Positions 55,395 through 64,000 of a stretch of DNA of 64,000 nucleotides are shown in pieces. This stretch comes from an uncultured delta proteobacterium. Lineage in GTDB: Bacteria; Desulfobacterota; BSN033; UBA1163. Each line of letters starts with the position of its first letter. Position 1 is the first letter of the stretch. The DNA is taken from NCBI GenBank assembly GCA_963827685.1, contig CAWHBU010000003.1, forward strand, positions 1,174,140 through 1,238,139, read 5' to 3'. Made by a program: the position numbers and the translations under genes. Under the pieces are notes generated by a model. That model had not been told where the DNA came from. It saw only the letters and a list, made by a program, of their open reading frames with translations, and ran no database searches.

Positions 55395-56303
55395 ATGACC
55401 AAAGAAGAAAAGGTCGTTTTCCTCAAGAATCCGAATAATGTTCTGGAACAACTCATTAAAAACTTTCTCAACGAGGCTGGACCAAATCGAAGAACCCAAC
55501 TGGATCACGGAATTTATTGGGAAGAACCTTTAGTAGGATTTGCCTCGGGGATGGACCCTCTCTTTTCTGAATATAAAACTATCATCGGCCCCTTCCACCT
55601 CACTCCAAGAGAGATCATTTCAGCAGCTCTGAAAGAGAGACGGAGAGGTCTTCTCTTTACCGAAATTGAACAGATTAGCGTCATTTCATGGGTCCTCCCC
55701 GCCTCTGAAGATACCCGCAAAAGCAATCGTCAGGAAAAACAATTCCCATCCAAACTCTGGGCATATACCAGAGATTTTGGGGAAGCTTGTAATGGCGCCC
55801 TCAAAAAACATGTCGTAACCTTTCTGGAGGATTTAGGGCATGTTGCCGTGGCACCTACTCTCTCCCCAACGTTTCAGTATTTAAGGGATGAGAAGACGGG
55901 TTGGGCTTCTCCGTGGTCTGAACGCCACATTGCCTATGCCTGCGGTCTTGGGACCTTTAGCCTTAATGACGGTCTCATCACGCCAAAGGGAATGGCCGTC
56001 CGATTCGGAAGCGTGGTCACCCTACTGAAGCTGGCACCGAGTGAGAAGAAATATCGACACCACCGAGAAAACTGTCTCCAGTTTCGAAACGAAAAGTGTG
56101 GGAGGTGCATCCCGAGATGTCCAGCCGGCGCGATTACGGAAAAAGGGCATGACAAGGACAAATGTTATGAATATATCCGTTCCGAGTCTCTCCGGGCAAA
56201 GCGGTTGGAATATGGGCTGCAAAACCCTCACCCTTCCTGTGGCCTCTGTCAAACCGACGTTCCCTGTGAATTTGAAATCCCAAGGCCAAACCTGATCGCT
56301 TGA
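55395..56303 (+). CDS. QueG/epoxyqueuosine-reductase-like Fe-S protein
   Basis: WSERHIAYACGLGTF, C..CGRCIPRCP and CGLCQTDVPC. Confidence 0.75.
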   Translation: MTKEEKVVFLKNPNNVLEQLIKNFLNEAGPNRRTQLDHGIYWEEPLVGFASGMDPLFSEYKTIIGPFHLTPREIISAALKERRRGLLFTEIEQISVISWVLPASEDTRKSNRQEKQFPSKLWAYTRDFGEACNGALKKHVVTFLEDLGHVAVAPTLSPTFQYLRDEKTGWASPWSERHIAYACGLGTFSLNDGLITPKGMAVRFGSVVTLLKLAPSEKKYRHHRENCLQFRNEKCGRCIPRCPAGAITEKGHDKDKCYEYIRSESLRAKRLEYGLQNPHPSCGLCQTDVPCEFEIPRPNLIA

Positions 56304-56394
56304 GATCCGAATGAAGTTGCGAGAGGGTTAAGGGTGGAGGTTGAAGGCTAAATTTTTCTGAAGAACGCACTTCAATATACCCAAAAGGTGAGCG

Positions 56395-57945
56395 ATGAGA
56401 AGACTGGTAGCTTTTCTTTTCTGTATGATTCTCCTTTCCTGGCCTATCCATGGGATGGCCCAACAACCCCCTTCTTCTATTCAAATCTATTTCTTCTATT
56501 CCGAGGATTGTCAACCCTGTCAGGTCATTCTCCGGAGTTATCTTCCAACACTGAAGACGATGGTCCCCGCCCTCGAAGTCAAAACGTTCGACGTAGGCAA
56601 CCCAGCCTATTATCAGGTGCTAACCAAACTTGAAGAAAAGTTTGGCCATGTAGGAGGTGAACTCCCTATCGTCTTCGTTGGGGATCGAATGCTTTCCGGA
56701 GAGATGGAGATTATGGACAAACTAAATCCCCTTCTCCTGGAGGTTCAGGCGAAAGGGGGTGCCTCCCCTCCTCCTATTGAAATCCCATCCATGGCCAAAC
56801 CCTCCCAAAAAGGTTTCACAGTCGATCTTGACTATTTTTATCAGAGGGGATGTCCAAAATGTGACCGCGCAAACGTCCTTCTCAAATATGTGGCCAAGAA
56901 GTATCCCCAATTGAATATCAAAGAGATTGACCTCAACACACCGGATGGGAAGCGTTTGAACGAAACCCTGTCCAACCGACTCAATCTCCCCATGGAGAAA
57001 CGTTTGATCGCACCAAGTATTTTTATTGGAAGCGATTATCTCTCTCCAGATGACATCACAGAATCCAAGGTGGAGATATCGATCCAGAAATACGAGTCAG
57101 CAATACCCTCACCTGTCCGCGGAACAAGCTCTCCGGCAGACGGGCCACCACCCACACCAGACGAGATTAAAAGAGCGGAAGAATCAATCATAGCACGCTT
57201 TAAATCCTTTGGAGTCCTGGCCATCCTCTTGGCAGGCTTGATTGAAGGAATGAATCCATGTGCCTTAGCCACTCTGGTTTTTTTCATTTCCTATCTCACC
57301 ATGGTTGGCCGAAAACGAAAAGAGATCTTCTGGGTGGGGCTGGGTTTTTCAGGAATAGGCTTTGTTACCCATTTATTCCTCGGCCTTGGAATTCTAAGTT
57401 TCATCAGGCATCTCTCATTTTTACCTCTGTTCTCACAAATCGTTTACTTTATCACTTTCGTATTCGCCCTTCTCCTTGGAATCTTTAGCCTTTACGATTA
57501 CATCCAACTGAAGAAGGGACGACCTGCCAAGATGAAGCTTCAGGTTCCAGATTTTTTGAAAAAGAAGATCCATCAGATCATCCGGATAAGAAGTGATGAC
57601 CTGGAGGCGAATAAGGGAAGCACGTCAATCCGTTTCTTGCTTGCTGCCGTCGTGATTGGTTTCATTGTCACCCTTTTACAATCGACTTGTACAAGCCAGG
57701 TCTACCTCCCCACGATCCTTTTTGTTACGAATATCCCATCACTCAGGGGGAGTGCTGTTTTGTATGTCATTTTGTATAACCTTGTCTATATCCTTCCATT
57801 ATTGGCGATCTTTGGGATAGTCTACTGGGGAGTCACTTCGGAACAGCTTTCCTTTTTCCTCCAGAAGAGGGCATCCACCATCAAGCTCCTCACCTCTGCT
57901 TTCTTTTTCGCCCTGGCAGGAATATTGATTTTGAGCTTGATATAA
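56395..57945 (+). CDS. Double glutaredoxin-like domain + CcdA/DsbD-type membrane domain
   Basis: Signal peptide, CQPC and CPKC, then TM region with NPC and CTSQVY. Confidence 0.8.
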   Translation: MRRLVAFLFCMILLSWPIHGMAQQPPSSIQIYFFYSEDCQPCQVILRSYLPTLKTMVPALEVKTFDVGNPAYYQVLTKLEEKFGHVGGELPIVFVGDRMLSGEMEIMDKLNPLLLEVQAKGGASPPPIEIPSMAKPSQKGFTVDLDYFYQRGCPKCDRANVLLKYVAKKYPQLNIKEIDLNTPDGKRLNETLSNRLNLPMEKRLIAPSIFIGSDYLSPDDITESKVEISIQKYESAIPSPVRGTSSPADGPPPTPDEIKRAEESIIARFKSFGVLAILLAGLIEGMNPCALATLVFFISYLTMVGRKRKEIFWVGLGFSGIGFVTHLFLGLGILSFIRHLSFLPLFSQIVYFITFVFALLLGIFSLYDYIQLKKGRPAKMKLQVPDFLKKKIHQIIRIRSDDLEANKGSTSIRFLLAAVVIGFIVTLLQSTCTSQVYLPTILFVTNIPSLRGSAVLYVILYNLVYILPLLAIFGIVYWGVTSEQLSFFLQKRASTIKLLTSAFFFALAGILILSLI

Positions 57946-57954
57946 GTCATAAAG

Positions 57955-58509
57955 ATGCTACTCGAATCCTATCAAATTACCCGTATCCTTCCTTGTCTGG
58001 CCGATCCGGAGAAGATCCGAGTGATCGCTGAGGTATCGGGTGAGATTTACGAAGCCTTCCCTTATCTGAACGCCATCTTAAGAGGATGTATCTATAATCA
58101 TCCAGCGTTGACATTAACCATTAAAAAGGACGGAAAATTGTTTACCCTGCATGCCCGCCATATTACCTTAGCCAAAATCGAAGACGAGAAAGAGGCTGAA
58201 GAAGTTCTGAGATGGTTGAAGAATCTGATCAACGAAACATATGAGAGCAGAGATCGAATCGAACCCAACTTCTCAAAAGGGGCAGAGCTGAAGGCATTGG
58301 ATATTTATAAGCTCCTCCCCGGCACAAGTTGTAAAAAGTGTGGAGAATTGACCTGCCTTGCTTTTGCCGTCAAATTGGTAGGCCAGGAGATTGAGCTTGG
58401 AAAATGTGTTCCTCTCTTTTCAGATGAATATCAGGGGAAGCGCAACGTCCTGCTTGAACTTCTCCATGCGGCCGGATATGATGTTTCTCTATTTTCTCCA
58501 GGGAGTTGA
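57955..58509 (+). CDS. (Fe-S)-binding protein
   Basis: LLPGTSCKKCGELTCLAFA...C putative Fe-S domain. Confidence 0.8.
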   Translation: MLLESYQITRILPCLADPEKIRVIAEVSGEIYEAFPYLNAILRGCIYNHPALTLTIKKDGKLFTLHARHITLAKIEDEKEAEEVLRWLKNLINETYESRDRIEPNFSKGAELKALDIYKLLPGTSCKKCGELTCLAFAVKLVGQEIELGKCVPLFSDEYQGKRNVLLELLHAAGYDVSLFSPGS

Positions 58510-58523
58510 GAAAGATAGAAAAC

Positions 58524-59051
58524 ATGCTCATTGAAAACTACCAATTGAGGATCGTCCTCTCGGATTGTAATCCCTCATCCCAGAAGGTGAATGCGATCGC
58601 TGATCTTTCTGTGGATATCAGTGAGATACTTCCCTATCTCAATACGACCCTTAAAGGACTGCAGTACTTTGAAGAAGAAAAAATCCTAACCGTAAAGAGA
58701 GGAGGGCGACTCATTACCTTTCGGCCCCGACAAATTGCATTGACGAAGCTGGAGGATGAGAGGGAAGCCAGGGTGGTCATGGAAGAACTGAAACAGATTC
58801 TCAATGAAACCTATGCCAATAAAGACCGTATCAAACCAACCGATGCCACCAGACCGGTTTTAAGGCCCCTTGAGGTCTTCAAACTTTTGCCGGGCAAAAA
58901 CTGCAAAGAATGCGGGGAGATGACCTGTATGGCTTTTGCCCTGAAGCTGATTAATGACGAGTTGGAGTTGCAAAAATGTCCATTATTGTTTACAAAAGAG
59001 TTTGAAACAAATCGTCTCAAAATAATGAAAGGAGTTGGCTTAAATGAATAA
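58524..59051 (+). CDS. (Fe-S)-binding protein, tandem paralog
   Basis: LLPGKNCKECGEMTCMAFA...CP; same architecture as the preceding gene. Confidence 0.8.
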   Translation: MLIENYQLRIVLSDCNPSSQKVNAIADLSVDISEILPYLNTTLKGLQYFEEEKILTVKRGGRLITFRPRQIALTKLEDEREARVVMEELKQILNETYANKDRIKPTDATRPVLRPLEVFKLLPGKNCKECGEMTCMAFALKLINDELELQKCPLLFTKEFETNRLKIMKGVGLNE

Positions 59052-59997
59052 CACAGTTGAAGAACAATCCACTGAATCGAAGGGGAAACTGGTGAACCGA
59101 AAAAACATTATTATTGCAGCGATCGCAATGGTGATATTGGCGGGGGCCTTCCTTTTTTACTTTTTCTATCTCCAAAATCCAAGCCGTAAGATTCTGGCTC
59201 GCGTGAATGATGAAAAAATCACATTAGAACAATTCAACAAAGAAATAGCCAAATTGGAACCTCCTTTAATAAGAGATATGTTTCGGGAGGAACCCAATAA
59301 TCTTCTCGAAAGATTGATCGTAAAGACACTCCTTGTACAAGAGGCAAAGAAACAGGGTCTTTCTGCTCCGGTTAAAACCTATAAGGATGCCACAAAGAAT
59401 TCTCTTTCACCTGAGGAATCCATGATCATCGAGTTTATTGGTAAAAAGTTTTCTTCCGCGCCGGAGGTAAAACGCGAGGAGGTTGAGAGATTCTACAAGA
59501 CGTATAAGGATCGCATGGAAGGGAAACCATTAAAAGAGGTGGCTCCGGCGATTGAGCAGTATATCAGGGATGCGAAGCGACAAGAATTACTGGCGCAGTT
59601 TTTAGAGGAGCTTCGGAAGAATGCCAAGGTGAATATCGATCAAGACCAGTTAAAAAAAATTGCAGCCAAACCACCTGAAATGAACACCGAGGATGATCTG
59701 AAGAAGGCTCTCACAAGTGGGAAGCCCGTTTTGGTGGATTTTGGAGCGAATTCTTGCATCCCCTGCCGCCAGATGAGACCTGTTCTTAAGGAAGTCGGCA
59801 CTGCATACTCGGAAAAGGCAAAGGTTCTGGTCATCGATGTTTACAAAAATCAGAATCTTGCTCAAGAGTATAAAGTTCTCATGCTTCCTACTCTGGTCTT
59901 CTTCGACTCAAAGGGGAAAGAAGCCTTCAGAAATGTCGGAATAATGGAAAAAGAAAAGATCGTTGCAAAGTTAAAAGAGATCGGAATGGGCACGTAA
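59044..59997 (+). CDS. Membrane-anchored SurA-N-like + thioredoxin fusion
   Basis: TM helix; LARVNDEKIT; VDFGANSCIPC...PT. Confidence 0.8.
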   Translation: MNNTVEEQSTESKGKLVNRKNIIIAAIAMVILAGAFLFYFFYLQNPSRKILARVNDEKITLEQFNKEIAKLEPPLIRDMFREEPNNLLERLIVKTLLVQEAKKQGLSAPVKTYKDATKNSLSPEESMIIEFIGKKFSSAPEVKREEVERFYKTYKDRMEGKPLKEVAPAIEQYIRDAKRQELLAQFLEELRKNAKVNIDQDQLKKIAAKPPEMNTEDDLKKALTSGKPVLVDFGANSCIPCRQMRPVLKEVGTAYSEKAKVLVIDVYKNQNLAQEYKVLMLPTLVFFDSKGKEAFRNVGIMEKEKIVAKLKEIGMGT

Positions 59998-60000
59998 TAA

Positions 60001-60087
60001 GTTCGGAGTGATGAGTTCGGTGCTCGGAGTAATAATACATAGATAAAAAAATCTTTTAAGAAACTTTGAACTCCAAACTCCGAACTA
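60001..60087. repeat. Heptamer inverted-repeat tract
   Basis: GTTCGGAG...GAGTTCGG...CTCGGAGT versus GAACTCCAAACTCCGAACT. Confidence 0.65.
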
Positions 60088-60103
60088 TATTTATGGCTAA
60101 GGG

Positions 60104-61198
60104 ATGCCTGAAGAACAGATTCCTAAAAGACTTTCTTTCTTGGACCGCTTTCTCACCTTGTGGATTTTCCTTGCGATGTTCATCGGGGTGGGCTGGGGAT
60201 ATATCTTTCCAGGTGTGGTCCACTTCTGGAACCAATTCCAGGTCGATACAACCAATATCCCTATTGCCCTTGGCCTCATTGTGATGATGTATCCGCCCTT
60301 GGCCAAGGTGAAATATGAGGTCCTCGGAGAGGTTTTCCGCAATTACAAAGTGCTTGCCCTTTCTTTAGTCCAGAATTGGATCATCGGACCCATCCTCATG
60401 TTTCTTTTGGCTATCATCTTTCTCTCCGGTCATTTTGAGTACATGGTCGGATTGATCTTAATTGGATTGGCCCGTTGCATTGCCATGGTCATTGTATGGA
60501 ATGATCTGGCCTCAGGAGACCGAGAATACTGTGCCGGCTTGGTGGCCTTTAATTCCATCTTCCAGGTGATTTTCTTCTCCATCTATGCCTACCTCTTCAT
60601 CACGGTCATTCCGCCCTGGCTGGGGCTAAAGGGGATGGCGGTCAAGATCACGATTGGCCAGATTGCAGAGAGTGTTTTTATTTATCTTGGAATCCCTTTT
60701 ATTGCCGGTGTCCTCTCGCGTCTGATTGGTCTAAAAACAAAAGGTCGGAAGTGGTATGAGGAGAAATTCATTCCCAAAATAAGCCCCTTCACTTTAATTG
60801 CTCTTCTCTTCACCATCCTGGTCATGTTCTCCCTCAAGGGTGAGTATATTGTTCAGCTCCCTCTGGATGTGGTACGGATAGCGATTCCTCTGTGCATCTA
60901 TTTCGTCGTCATGTTTTTTGTCTCCTTCTATCTGTCGATGAAGGCAGGCGCCACTTACGAGCAATCCACCACGTTGAGCTTCACCGCCGCATCGAATAAC
61001 TTCGAGCTTGCCATCGCTGTGGCCGTAGCGGTCTTCGGCATCAACTCTGGCCAGGCTTTCGCAGCGGTGATAGGCCCTCTCATGGAAGTCCCTGTTTTAA
61101 TCAGCCTGGTCAACGTGGCTCTCTGGTTTAAAAAGAAATATTTCCCTTATGCTGTGGAAACTCCCACCGGAGTCTGCCACGTGACCTGCGCACCCTGA
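60104..61198 (+). CDS. acr3: ACR3-family arsenite efflux transporter
   Basis: [39 protein letters not shown] and GPLMEVP. Confidence 0.95.
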
Positions 61199-61302
61199 GG
61201 AAAACAACAAAAAGGACCTACCGTGATAGCCAAAGAGCATTAGAGAGTGAGGCAAAAAGAATGAGGACGAATTGGTAACGCTTTTTCACACGGAGAAGCA
61301 TT

Positions 61303-62010
61303 ATGACTAATCCAAGCAATTTAGATCGGACTTTCCATTTTATTATGGAAAGAATGGTGGAATTTGGGCAGGCGCCGCATTATACGGAGATCGCTTTCGG
61401 TTTGGGAATTCCCGTGGAAGAAGGGCGAAAAGCTCTTCACGACCTTTTTACAGCAGGGATTCCGGGATGGCTTTTTCCAAATACTGACTATATCACCTCT
61501 TTTGCCCCGTTTAACAACCTTCCCACTCAGTACCGAATAACCGTCGAAGGGGAACAGAAATGGTTTGGCCAGTGAGGGTTTGAATCGCTGGCGGTCTGCT
61601 GGCTCTTTCCAGGAAAGACAGTCCAGATCGATGTTCCCTGTCTCGATTGCGGGCTCCCGATTCGGGTGGAAATCCGCGACGGGCAGATCCTTCGAACCGA
61701 GCCCAAAGGTCTGATGGGCTATGTGGCTGTGCCCTTTTGGAAGTGGTTTGAAAACGCTCCCTATGCCTGAAGTACGATGAACCTTTTCCGGTCGGAAGAG
61801 CACATTCGGAATTGGGCCCGTTTTGATCCCGCTACAGCCGATGGAATCATTTCACTTTTGGACTTGGTCAAACTCTTTTCAGGCAACTATTTTCGAAAAC
61901 GCCTGGACCTTGATTGGGTCTCACGTAGTCGAGACTATGCCCGGGAAATGATCACAACGCTTGCGGAGCTTGGAAGGACCGGCCCTTTCTGGAAGCGACC
62001 GAAGCCATAA
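61303..62010 (+). CDS. MerB-like organometal lyase with two in-frame UGA codons (putative Sec91 and Sec156), 235 aa
   Basis: One frame: ...APFNNLPT...KWFGQ-TGA(61573)-GFESLAVCWLFPGKTVQIDVPCLDCG...APYA-TGA(61768)-STMNLFRSEEH; GGTC-loop hairpins after each UGA. Confidence 0.85.
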
Positions 62011-62199
62011 CCTTGAAGGGCTTTCCCTGGTGAAGGCATGGTTCGAGGTTTTCCAGAATGAGGATCACGGCCAGAGTTTTTTAAGGAGATCGGGCGTTAC
62101 TACTTCACCGGTCATTAGTTTAAGTATTTAAGTCTCATCCACAAAAAGTTGACCCTCGTCAAATAAAAAATCATTTTCGGTCAAAAGGAGGAATACCTC

Positions 62200-62988
62200 A
62201 TGAAGGAATGGCAGGAGCTTGGTGAGGAATTAAGGCGCTACATCAACCCTGAGACTTTTCCGGTCGCGATAAAAATATTAAAAGACAAAGGGAAGATTCC
62301 AAGTGGAACTCGAACTCCCCTGAAAGATCTGAAGGCAAAGATGGCGCACTGTCAGGCGCAAGCCATATGCCGAAAGTATGGTTGGACTATTGCCATGACC
62401 AAAGAGGACTTAGGCTGCGCCATTTCTGGGCATAACTACGGATGGGAACTGGCCAACCAAGAAGGGGCAATCGGTTTTCTCACACGAATGAATTACGCCG
62501 CAGACCGCAAAGTGGCTCTCGACATCCTTCAATCCTCCAGAACCTTGCAGCCGGGCCAATGTGACGCAATAGTATATTCTCCTCTGGAGTGGACCAAGAT
62601 CGTACCAGATATAATCCTGATCTACTTGAATCCGGCTCAACTCATGCGCTGTATCCACGGAAGCACCCGGCGAACGGGACAACCCATTACCTCCACTTTT
62701 TCCGGTCGAGCTGCTTCATGTACCGAAGGAGTCCTGGGAGCTTTTCTCGATCAGTCCCCTAAAGTGGTCGTGCCGGGCAACGGGGATCGAGTTTGGGGAA
62801 CGACTCAAGACCATGAAATGGGGTATGCACTTCCTTCATCTCACCTGAAAGATCTTGTAGAAGGACTTGCCAAGACTCACGAAAAGGGGATACGATACCC
62901 CATACCCAGTTTTCTCCGTTATCAACCTGAGGTGGGGCTCTCAATTCCGTTGACGGATATCTTTAAACCTAACCCCTTACCACATTGA
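62200..62988 (+). CDS. DUF169 family protein
   Basis: PVAIK, HCQ, LGC, PDIILIY.NPAQ, ASC and PGNGDR. Confidence 0.82.
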   Translation: MKEWQELGEELRRYINPETFPVAIKILKDKGKIPSGTRTPLKDLKAKMAHCQAQAICRKYGWTIAMTKEDLGCAISGHNYGWELANQEGAIGFLTRMNYAADRKVALDILQSSRTLQPGQCDAIVYSPLEWTKIVPDIILIYLNPAQLMRCIHGSTRRTGQPITSTFSGRAASCTEGVLGAFLDQSPKVVVPGNGDRVWGTTQDHEMGYALPSSHLKDLVEGLAKTHEKGIRYPIPSFLRYQPEVGLSIPLTDIFKPNPLPH

Positions 62989-63016
62989 CAATTCACCTAT
63001 CTAACGATATGTTCTA

Positions 63017-63555
63017 GTAAAGAACCCCGCAGCAGAGCTGCGGGGCATTAAAATTCAAAACTTAATTGCTCCTGTTGCTGATACTTTATATAGCGACGTA
63101 TGACTTCAGAGGTAACTTTGTCTCCAACAGACCGAACAAAATACCCATCACTCCAAAACTCTCCACCCCAAAGCTCTTTCTTCACCTCTGGAAACTGCTT
63201 GAACACCATTTTCGCCGAGATACTCTTTATGATCTGCACAATCTCTGCCGGACAATACCGAGGAGGGGCAGACAAAAATAAATGAACATGATCATCCTTT
63301 ACCTCCATCGTATCTATCTCAAACTCGTACCTCTCCGATATTTGCTCAAAACTCATCTTAAGCCTTTTTGCCAACTCACCTCCCAATATCATCTTCCGAT
63401 ATTTGGGAACCCATACCATATGATATTTCAAATCGTAGACCGCATGGCTTGTTCTTTTTATCGAGCTCATGCAGTACTTATACCATGTCTTATCGCTTCG
63501 CGAACCTGTTTTCATCCGCCCAGCAGAGCTGGGCGGTATTCAACAGGTATTTTTT
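63017..63555 (-). mobile_element. IS200-family element, copy 2
   Basis: Appears identical to 45142-45680 and has the same TTTAT target. Confidence 0.93.
63048..63515 (-). CDS. tnpA: Y1 HUH transposase
   Basis: Translation identical to 45173-45640. Confidence 0.95.
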   Translation of the reverse strand: MKTGSRSDKTWYKYCMSSIKRTSHAVYDLKYHMVWVPKYRKMILGGELAKRLKMSFEQISERYEFEIDTMEVKDDHVHLFLSAPPRYCPAEIVQIIKSISAKMVFKQFPEVKKELWGGEFWSDGYFVRSVGDKVTSEVIRRYIKYQQQEQLSFEF

Positions 63556-63684
63556 ATAAAAAAGGACCCGAGTGGCCAAGGATTCGAGTGGTCGAGTTAA
63601 ATACACTTGAACCCATGAACCCTCGAATCCTTGAACCCCTTTAAAAGACTTTTGGATTGTATATTTAGATCAAGGAGGTGAATT

Positions 63685-64000
63685 ATGGAACTGAAGACGG
63701 AGCGCTTGGAGATTCCGGAAGGATGTAACATCATCTTTGGTCAGACCCATTTCATCAAGACAGTCGAAGACCTTTACGAGATCATGGTGGGATCCGTTCC
63801 AGGTGCCAAATTTGGAATCGGATTCTGTGAGGCCTCTGGCGCCTGCCTCGTTCGGCTTGAGGGAAACGATGCGACATTGAAAGAGGTTGCCAAGAAAAAT
63901 GCCCTGAAGATCGGGGCAGGCCACACCTTCGTCGTGGTCTTAAAAGATGCCTTCCCGATCAATGTGCTCAATGCAGTGAAGATGTGTCAGGAGGTCTGTA
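63685..64000 (+). CDS. Adenosine-specific kinase family (DUF355), 3' truncated by the window
   Basis: MELKTERLEIPEGCNIIFGQTHFIKTVEDLYE...FCEASG...GAGH...PINVLN; RBS AGGAGGTG. Confidence 0.85.
   Translation, partial: MELKTERLEIPEGCNIIFGQTHFIKTVEDLYEIMVGSVPGAKFGIGFCEASGACLVRLEGNDATLKEVAKKNALKIGAGHTFVVVLKDAFPINVLNAVKMCQEVC

Follow-up and report, generated by a model that had tools for sequence, protein, structure and literature searches.

A MerB-like gene of Thermodesulfobacteriota that very probably encodes a protein with two selenocysteines

Two in-frame UGA codons in a MerB-like gene

The 64,000-nt stretch of DNA analysed here (the window) derives from an uncultured delta proteobacterium and carries a gene for a MerB-like protein that very probably contains two selenocysteine (Sec) residues. 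The gene occupies 708 nt of the + strand (positions 61303 to 62010) as one frame of 235 codons and a TAA stop codon (62008-62010), the sole interruptions being TGA triplets at codons 91 and 156 (61573-61575 and 61768-61770, + strand; termed UGA-1 and UGA-2). A putative Shine-Dalgarno-like element (GGAG, 61292-61295, + strand) lies 7 nt upstream of the ATG. UGA-1 is found in the context WFGQ-U-GFESL (at greater length, WFGQ-U-GFESLAVCWLFPGK) and UGA-2 in PYA-U-STMNLF (APYA-U-STMNLFR), with a CLDCG motif (codons 113-117) located between them. A first-pass annotation made from the sequence alone had proposed a single frame broken only by the two TGAs, with these contexts flanking CLDCG, and translation of the region bore out both points.

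Each UGA is followed by a hairpin that resembles a Sec insertion sequence (SECIS) element. SECIS-1 (61587-61603, + strand), as given by the minimum-free-energy fold, consists of a 6-bp stem, GCUGGC/GCUGGC (61587-61592 and 61598-61603), and the loop GGUCU; from UGA-1 it is 11 nt to the start of the stem and 17 nt to that of the loop. SECIS-2 (61783-61800, + strand), for which both the fold and conservation speak, has a 7-bp stem, CUUUUCC/GGAAGAG (61783-61789 and 61794-61800), and the loop GGUC, the stem starting 12 nt and the loop 19 nt after UGA-2. Hairpins with GGTC at the apex, 17 to 19 nt after each UGA, had been described in the first-pass annotation and were located where it had placed them. 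We take the location of a hairpin within the coding sequence about 11 nt after the UGA, and the G and U of its apical loop, to be features shared with the fdhF-type SECIS of Escherichia coli, from which the present gene differs in having two elements, very short stems (6-7 bp) and no Rfam match.

The host genome possesses the components expected for Sec insertion, whose presence had been suggested as a check: selA (630 bits; cut-off 268), selB (357 bits; cut-off 242), selD (384 bits; cut-off 125) and a tRNA-Sec with the anticodon tca were all found. The selD gene (G000:C6:489003-489929; L012) has one in-frame TGA of its own, within KKAG-U-ASKVGP, and is itself a selenoprotein gene; the hairpin predicted for it differs in its loop and has no clear motif in common with the two hairpins described here. 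In 401 genomes sampled evenly from the phylum, 36 of the 39 genomes that carry the two-TGA gene also have a selA match (E ≤1e-60). As selA occurs in 371 of the 401 sampled genomes, its presence in carriers is only weakly discriminating.

Under translation table 11 the region is divided into separate open reading frames (ORFs; 61303-61575, 90 aa, and 61777-62010, 77 aa), and public gene calls exist for pieces of 90, 63 and 77 residues. These divisions would suit a reading in which neither TGA specifies Sec, the region being a pseudogene, three small genes or a gene in which TGA specifies Trp (code 4). The codon usage of the host speaks against Trp, however: TGA is a usual stop codon, terminating 750 of the 1990 genome ORFs of at least 300 aa, and Trp is encoded by TGG, as are all eight Trp residues of the gene itself. 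The homology to MerB described below spans both stops, which also argues against a non-Sec reading, and the comparison with relatives makes that reading very improbable.

Conservation of the UGA codons and of the hairpins

Codons at the two sites were compared in 126 loci taken from genomes (L001, L002 and L016-L139, some of which represent one place fetched twice) and in 80 metagenome loci, which are the best 80 of at least 546 stretches encoding a relative (600 candidates). TGA is present at both sites in 123 of the 126 genome loci and in all 80 metagenome loci; the three remaining genome loci comprise one TGC/TGA pair (L103) and two decayed copies. By site, UGA-1 is TGA in 124 of 126 genome loci, the exceptions being L103 and the pseudogene L030, and UGA-2 is likewise TGA in 124 of 126, the exceptions being the pseudogenes L030 and L132. 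No TGG was found at either site among the 206 loci. The 123 two-TGA loci include L020, in which about 15 codons directly after the second TGA, and with them half of SECIS-2, are missing. True pseudogenes look different from the intact copies: L030 has been shortened and frameshifted, and in L132 a TAA stands near codon 23 and site 2 encodes Val. The Cys codon at site 1 of L103 looks derived, because 9 of the 12 matching rows among the relatives of its genome hold two TGAs.

The host genome itself has a second copy on another contig (66% identity), also with two TGAs. Among close relatives, 16 of 41 genomes match, and all 20 near-full-length rows (45-90% identity) have both TGAs. In the phylum sample (threshold E ≤1e-10), 47 of the 401 genomes match and 39 carry the two-TGA clade. 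Forty-five rows reach 45% identity, of which 43 have two TGAs, one has three TGAs, and one, a decayed copy, has one TGA and one TAA. The other 11 rows are stop-free: two cover only the N-terminus and do not reach codon 91, and nine are other MerB-like proteins of 26-35% identity. Contigs from four independent metagenome runs show variant letters at many positions of the gene and none at either TGA. Altogether, more than 200 loci of 45-90% protein identity retain the frame together with both TGAs, which is difficult to reconcile with a pseudogene or with three small genes. In stop-free full-length relatives (n = 14; 23-56% identity), Cys occupies site 1 in 13 of 14 and site 2 in all 14. The check on homologues proposed at the outset, whether they have Cys or a conserved TGA at the two sites, therefore gave a favourable answer in both respects.

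Trp at these positions of homologues had been named as an observation that would speak against Sec, and such proteins do exist in databases. A word-indexed protein search returned 120 relatives among the matches listed, of which 50 have Trp at both sites (W/W), 61 have Cys at site 1 and stop immediately short of site 2, a single one (P0041, on a 210-kb contig) has Cys at both, and eight are partial or unclear. The W/W proteins (P0002-P0051) derive from contigs of approximately 1-2.7 kb. When compared with the 80 metagenome loci, one of the 50, P0004, matched locus L208 letter for letter, and the DNA has TGA at exactly both Trp positions; none of the 50 matched genome loci. We infer that the Trp residues of the W/W homologues are an artefact of mistranslated TGA, which is shown for this one protein of 50. 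Gene callers probably chose a code in which TGA is Trp (it looks like code 4) on short contigs dominated by the gene, so that the W/W entries would be false full-length proteins. With TGA beneath P0004 and TGG at neither site in any locus, the proposal that the TGAs are not Sec codons is refuted as far as sequence data allow.

The remaining database entries reflect the same difficulty. Forms of 155 residues are truncations at the second TGA; L103, for example, has the same residues as P0063 over the aligned part, as judged by eye, and past the TGA it reads STMNLFRSEEH. In an all-against-all HMMER comparison of 1.84 billion representatives, the family appears mostly as pieces bounded by the TGAs (residues 1-90, 94-155 and 159-235), and the cluster members carry the name 'hypothetical protein'. 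The expectation that annotators would miss the gene thus proved correct, as databases hold it in fragments of 90, 63, 77 and 155 residues.

The strongest evidence for SECIS elements is a collapse of synonymous-site variation over the hairpins. Normalized third-position entropy at conserved degenerate codons of 103 distinct genes is 0.25 for codons 95-99 and 0.07 for codons 161-165, versus a mean of 0.86 (sd 0.14) at the remaining 107 codons scored. No other 5-codon window of the gene is as low as these two, and no scored codon elsewhere falls below 0.25. Because the invariance of silent sites is confined to 15 nt per hairpin, constraint on the protein cannot explain it.

Pairing is conserved as well. 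In SECIS-1, 99.3% of 588 cells are paired across 98 distinct sequences, and the G and U in the 5-nt loop are invariant. In SECIS-2, with its 7-bp helix and GGUC loop, 97.7% of 651 cells are paired across 93 distinct 48-nt sequences, and compensatory double changes occur in three pairs (C-G to U-A, U-A to G-C and C-G to U-A). In 500 shuffles, neither the covariation score nor the percentage of paired cells was ever equalled, pairing fell to 43-60% when partner columns were slid, and RNAalifold recovered the SECIS-2 helix unprompted. These comparisons support SECIS-like hairpins that are conserved at the RNA level after both UGAs, and recognition by SelB is predicted.

In contigs of the four metagenome runs (at least 90% likeness), the bins containing the hairpins (61586-61613 and 61782-61809) show peaks of summed depth; the X4 depth in these bins is 1717 and 4181, versus approximately 60 to 2240 elsewhere. 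Such peaks would be expected if, among many organisms, no other DNA of the gene were as conserved as these two 28-nt stretches.

The MerB fold, its active site and the relation to SaoL

As judged from profile matches and a structural model, the read-through product is a MerB-family protein with the MerB fold. It matches the Pfam family PF03243 (MerB) with 68.9 bits (gathering cut-off 27) over residues 72-190. On the raw genome the same profile gives a match of 52.3 bits that spans both TGAs, and the only two PF03243 genes in the genome are the two copies with two TGAs. A phmmer search of PDB sequences matched only MerB2 (5c17, E 3.4e-6) and MerB chains. An AlphaFold2 model computed from a 27-sequence alignment (A1) has a mean predicted local distance difference test score (pLDDT) of 93.8 and a predicted template modelling score (pTM) of 0.88. 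When the model was compared with the PDB by Foldseek, a check that had been suggested in advance, MerB or MerB2 took all of the first 11 places (E 4e-11 to 6e-7), followed by a match with an E value of 0.08. Target-normalized TM-scores to MerB structures are 0.64-0.70, and identity to the solved chains is 15-21%. The MerB-like nature claimed in the first-pass annotation is borne out by these comparisons.

In the phmmer alignments to MerB and MerB2 chains, the two Sec residues and Glu94 sit at the positions of the metal-binding cysteines and the proton-donating aspartate of MerB. Specifically, Sec91 pairs with Cys96, Glu94 (GAA, 61582-61584, + strand) with Asp99, Sec156 with Cys159 and Cys113 with Cys117. 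The Sec91 to Sec156 spacing is 65 residues versus 63 in MerB, so that the earlier assignment of both nucleophiles to Sec, with Glu in place of Asp99 and this near-equal spacing, was reproduced. The catalytic residues Cys96, Asp99 and Cys159 of MerB are not kept as such; Sec91, Glu94 and Sec156 are chemically analogous to them, not identical. Glu94 is at least 90% conserved in A1, and in the Cys113-Leu-Asp-Cys116 motif (61639-61650, + strand) the residues Cys113, Asp115 and Cys116 are invariant in the 27 sequences, a role for the motif being indicated by this conservation only. Cys116 is without a counterpart in the aligned MerB chains.

MerB itself, the organomercurial lyase, which cleaves the bond between mercury and carbon (PF03243; PDB 3F0O and 3F0P; MerB2, 5C17), shares with the present protein its fold, its Pfam family and the aligned nucleophile and acid positions. 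The protein described here differs in having Sec for both Cys, Glu for Asp, an additional invariant Cys (in CxDC) and a C-terminal helical extension, and its locus has no mer operon, the neighbours being genes for ACR3 and a DUF169 protein. The equivalog models for MerB proper are not reached (NF009710, 25.5 versus 193 bits; NF033555, 19.4 versus 200 bits).

The only MerB-like selenoprotein that we found in print is SaoL, the selenocysteine-assisted organometallic lyase. According to the accessible part of its description (Haft and Gwadz, bioRxiv 10.1101/2022.07.06.499078), SaoL contains a single Sec, located in a C-U dipeptide at the position of MerB Cys159, keeps Cys99 and Asp102, marks a nine-gene SAO locus, and comes from anaerobes, where it is usually truncated at the UGA in databases. 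The same portion of the text raises the question of whether Sec acts here in catalysis or in binding. As both proteins are MerB-like with Sec at the Cys159 position, and as the SaoL model NF040728 is the best NCBIfam match of the read-through protein (E 2.3e-9), we considered whether the gene is simply a member of the SaoL family. We give this hardly any credence. The match scores 37.4 bits versus a cut-off of 140, and no sequence in the genome exceeds that cut-off (best 31.3 and 29.5 bits). The protein has two Sec residues, an A-U rather than a C-U context and Glu at the acidic position, and its first nucleophile is Sec, whereas SaoL, as far as its description is available, has one Sec and retains Cys99 and the Asp. 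In the 401-genome sample, SaoL is above cut-off in three genomes and the two-Sec clade is present in 39.

Gene context also separates the two. For 81 loci, neighbouring ORFs of 90 aa or more that are not split by TGA were clustered over approximately 4 kb of either flank of the gene (57001-64000 in the window). No SAO-type transporter or efflux genes adjoin the gene in Pfam and NCBIfam scans of the window neighbours, and no conserved neighbour emerged in the 81 loci, the individual Sao family models not having been searched.

The two-Sec form is, to judge from the parts of the literature that were accessible, new. Under MerB or alkylmercury lyase, the available text of PMC9312934 has only an SaoL-type entry with one Sec. 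The same is true of what was available of a 2026 catalogue of 119 selenoprotein families (PMC13188914), in which the two-Sec clade was not found under the names MerB, SaoL, lyase or alkylmercury. There is no mention of MerB, alkylmercury or mercury in PMC2398784 (Zhang and Gladyshev, 2008) or PMC12013277 (deep-Sep), and none of MerB, SaoL or lyase in PMC13326102 (BSepDB). NCBIfam holds no model for the clade. No two-Sec MerB-like form was found in the full-text literature to the extent that it was accessible, and a prior listing, for instance in supplementary tables, is possible.

With the SaoL model (cut-off 140), six other MerB-like loci of the phylum give 43-56 bits, and each of them has one in-frame TGA: G307:C6:3716-4108, G221:C5:364277-364666, G279:C7:1570497-1570886, G090:C35:18342-18710, G202:C158:736-1050 and G204:C35:10823-11149. 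These may represent further unrecognized clades of MerB-like selenoproteins.

Possible function, distribution and gene neighbourhood

We strongly favour the reading that the gene encodes a MerB-fold selenoprotein with two Sec residues, most likely an organometal lyase. In the mechanism that we propose, the hairpin 11-12 nt after each UGA, with G and U in its apical loop, would recruit SelB carrying Sec-tRNA(Sec), and codons 91 and 156 would then be decoded as Sec and not as stops. The two selenolates would hold the soft metal(loid) of an organometallic compound between them, and protonolysis at this diselenolate site, with Glu94 as the proton donor, would cleave the metal(loid)-carbon bond. 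Release of the product from the two selenolates would require a partner, for which the C113xxC116 pair or cellular thiols might serve.

The two parts of this reading differ in strength. The two-Sec, MerB-like part of what had first been claimed stood up to alignment, to the conservation of the TGAs and to the analysis of the hairpins. Its other part, a metal-carbon lyase, is suggested by the fold and the aligned residues; given a double selenoprotein, we consider a lyase reasonably probable and leave the substrate open. There is no mer operon, no MerA or SaoL above cut-off in the genome (best MerA match 323.5 versus 454 bits) and no conserved neighbourhood, the largest real neighbour family occurring in 8 of the 81 loci. 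The functional proposal therefore rests on the fold and on the nucleophile/acid/nucleophile arrangement.

The main alternative is that the protein is a two-Sec MerB-fold protein without turnover. It could act as a selenol-based metal(loid) chaperone or sensor, or in redox chemistry in which a diselenide or selenenyl-sulphide interconverts with the selenol, perhaps together with C113xxC116. The genomic isolation just described fits such a role, as do the invariance of the CxDC motif, whose second Cys has no equivalent in the aligned MerB chains, and the deposition of MerB2 and of MerB D99S in metal-bound forms, as their PDB entry titles state. The choice between catalysis and binding that was raised for SaoL, in the portion of that preprint at hand, applies here also. 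The retention of a proton-donor carboxylate at Glu94, of the whole MerB fold and of both nucleophile positions points instead to catalysis, and we regard a protein without turnover as possible, if rather unlikely.

Several observations weigh against our preferred interpretation, a two-Sec organometal lyase, and must be set beside it. Sec insertion is deduced from DNA sequence, lyase activity solely from the fold and three aligned residues, and expression of the gene is presumed. A bis-selenolate would presumably bind Hg(II) very tightly, so that product release needs a partner; the lack of a MerA match and of a conserved neighbourhood counts here too. Three of the 39 carrier genomes have no selA match, with selB above cut-off in all three. 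No covariation was found for SECIS-1 in 98 distinct sequences, whose pairs barely vary. The single-sequence stability of each hairpin is within the range of shuffles (z +0.45 and -0.59), and therefore stability alone proves nothing. Finally, an Rfam scan of 61250-62060 with E values up to 10 gave three chance-level matches and no SECIS family.

These points notwithstanding, the gene itself is most probably a real double selenoprotein gene. Both metal ligands of the MerB site would then be Sec, which would make the protein a natural diselenol metal site encoded with two SECIS elements in 708 nt. Although the clade is common (470 loci; 39 of 401 genomes), databases hold it only as fragments or code-4 mistranslations. 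Surveys of merB in anoxic sediments probably miss or miscount the family, and selenoproteome counts for Thermodesulfobacteriota would be too low. The family also offers a test of what selenium contributes to the cleavage of metal-carbon bonds.

With considerable doubt, we put forward a more specific idea. The clade might be the missing organometal(loid) lyase of anaerobic sediment bacteria that is independent of both the mer operon and oxygen, its diselenolate site demethylating methylmercury or cleaving C-As or C-Sn bonds at trace environmental levels. Two considerations were drawn on: an arsenite exporter adjoins the gene in this genome, though only here, and the known C-As lyase, ArsI, requires O2. 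If the idea is true, the gene would be a marker for anaerobic demethylation, the pathways of which, according to the accessible text of one review (PMC10114901), remain to be investigated.

The clade is distinct, mostly stand-alone and widespread in Thermodesulfobacteriota (the former Deltaproteobacteria). A relative is encoded at 470 loci among GTDB species representatives. The best 80 of these, which were kept, come from metagenome-assembled genomes of Deltaproteobacteria/Thermodesulfobacteriota, for example Syntrophales, Desulfobacterales, Desulfomonile and Desulfarculus, with one labelled Leptospirales.

In the window, the upstream neighbour encodes an ACR3 arsenite efflux transporter (60104-61198, + strand; TIGR00832, 466 bits, cut-off 283) and itself ends in TGA; it stands beside the gene in one of the 81 loci, that of this genome. 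The downstream neighbour encodes a DUF169 protein (62200-62988, + strand; PF02596, 153.6 bits), which lies near the gene in five of the 81 loci, the closest orthologues only. A scan of 59900-63100 for promoters and terminators found none on the + strand between ACR3, the MerB-like gene and DUF169, the counts being no higher than those of shuffles. The largest neighbour clusters of the 81-locus comparison were rejected as antisense or fragment artefacts of the gene itself.

Two genes beyond the window copy, on its downstream side, is an IS200-type transposase gene (63048-63515, - strand), and the paralogue is adjoined by a gene for a phage-type integrase (L002:2424-3587, + strand). Together with the variable neighbourhood, these genes hint that the gene moves as a small cassette.

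Farther upstream, 5′ of ACR3 (55395-59051, + strand), lie two ORFs (302 and 516 aa) without a Pfam or NCBIfam family. They are followed on the same strand by genes for two tandem paralogous proteins of 181-184 aa, in which only a 33-residue PF04060 Fe-S motif is recognized, and next by a gene for a protein with SurA_N and thioredoxin domains.

In one subclade, a gene of the Pyr_redox_2 or CoA-disulfide-reductase-like type is present about 2 kb 5′ of the MerB-like gene, its active-site position being occupied by an in-frame TGA (SYAA-U-PMPYY). It was found at L080:~680-2036, L088:1-1338, L098:~130-1455, L100:~590-1921 and L109:~1380-2709, all on the + strand, with the ORF called 60 residues short. 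This gene probably encodes a further selenoprotein, of the NADH-oxidase/CoA-disulfide reductase type.

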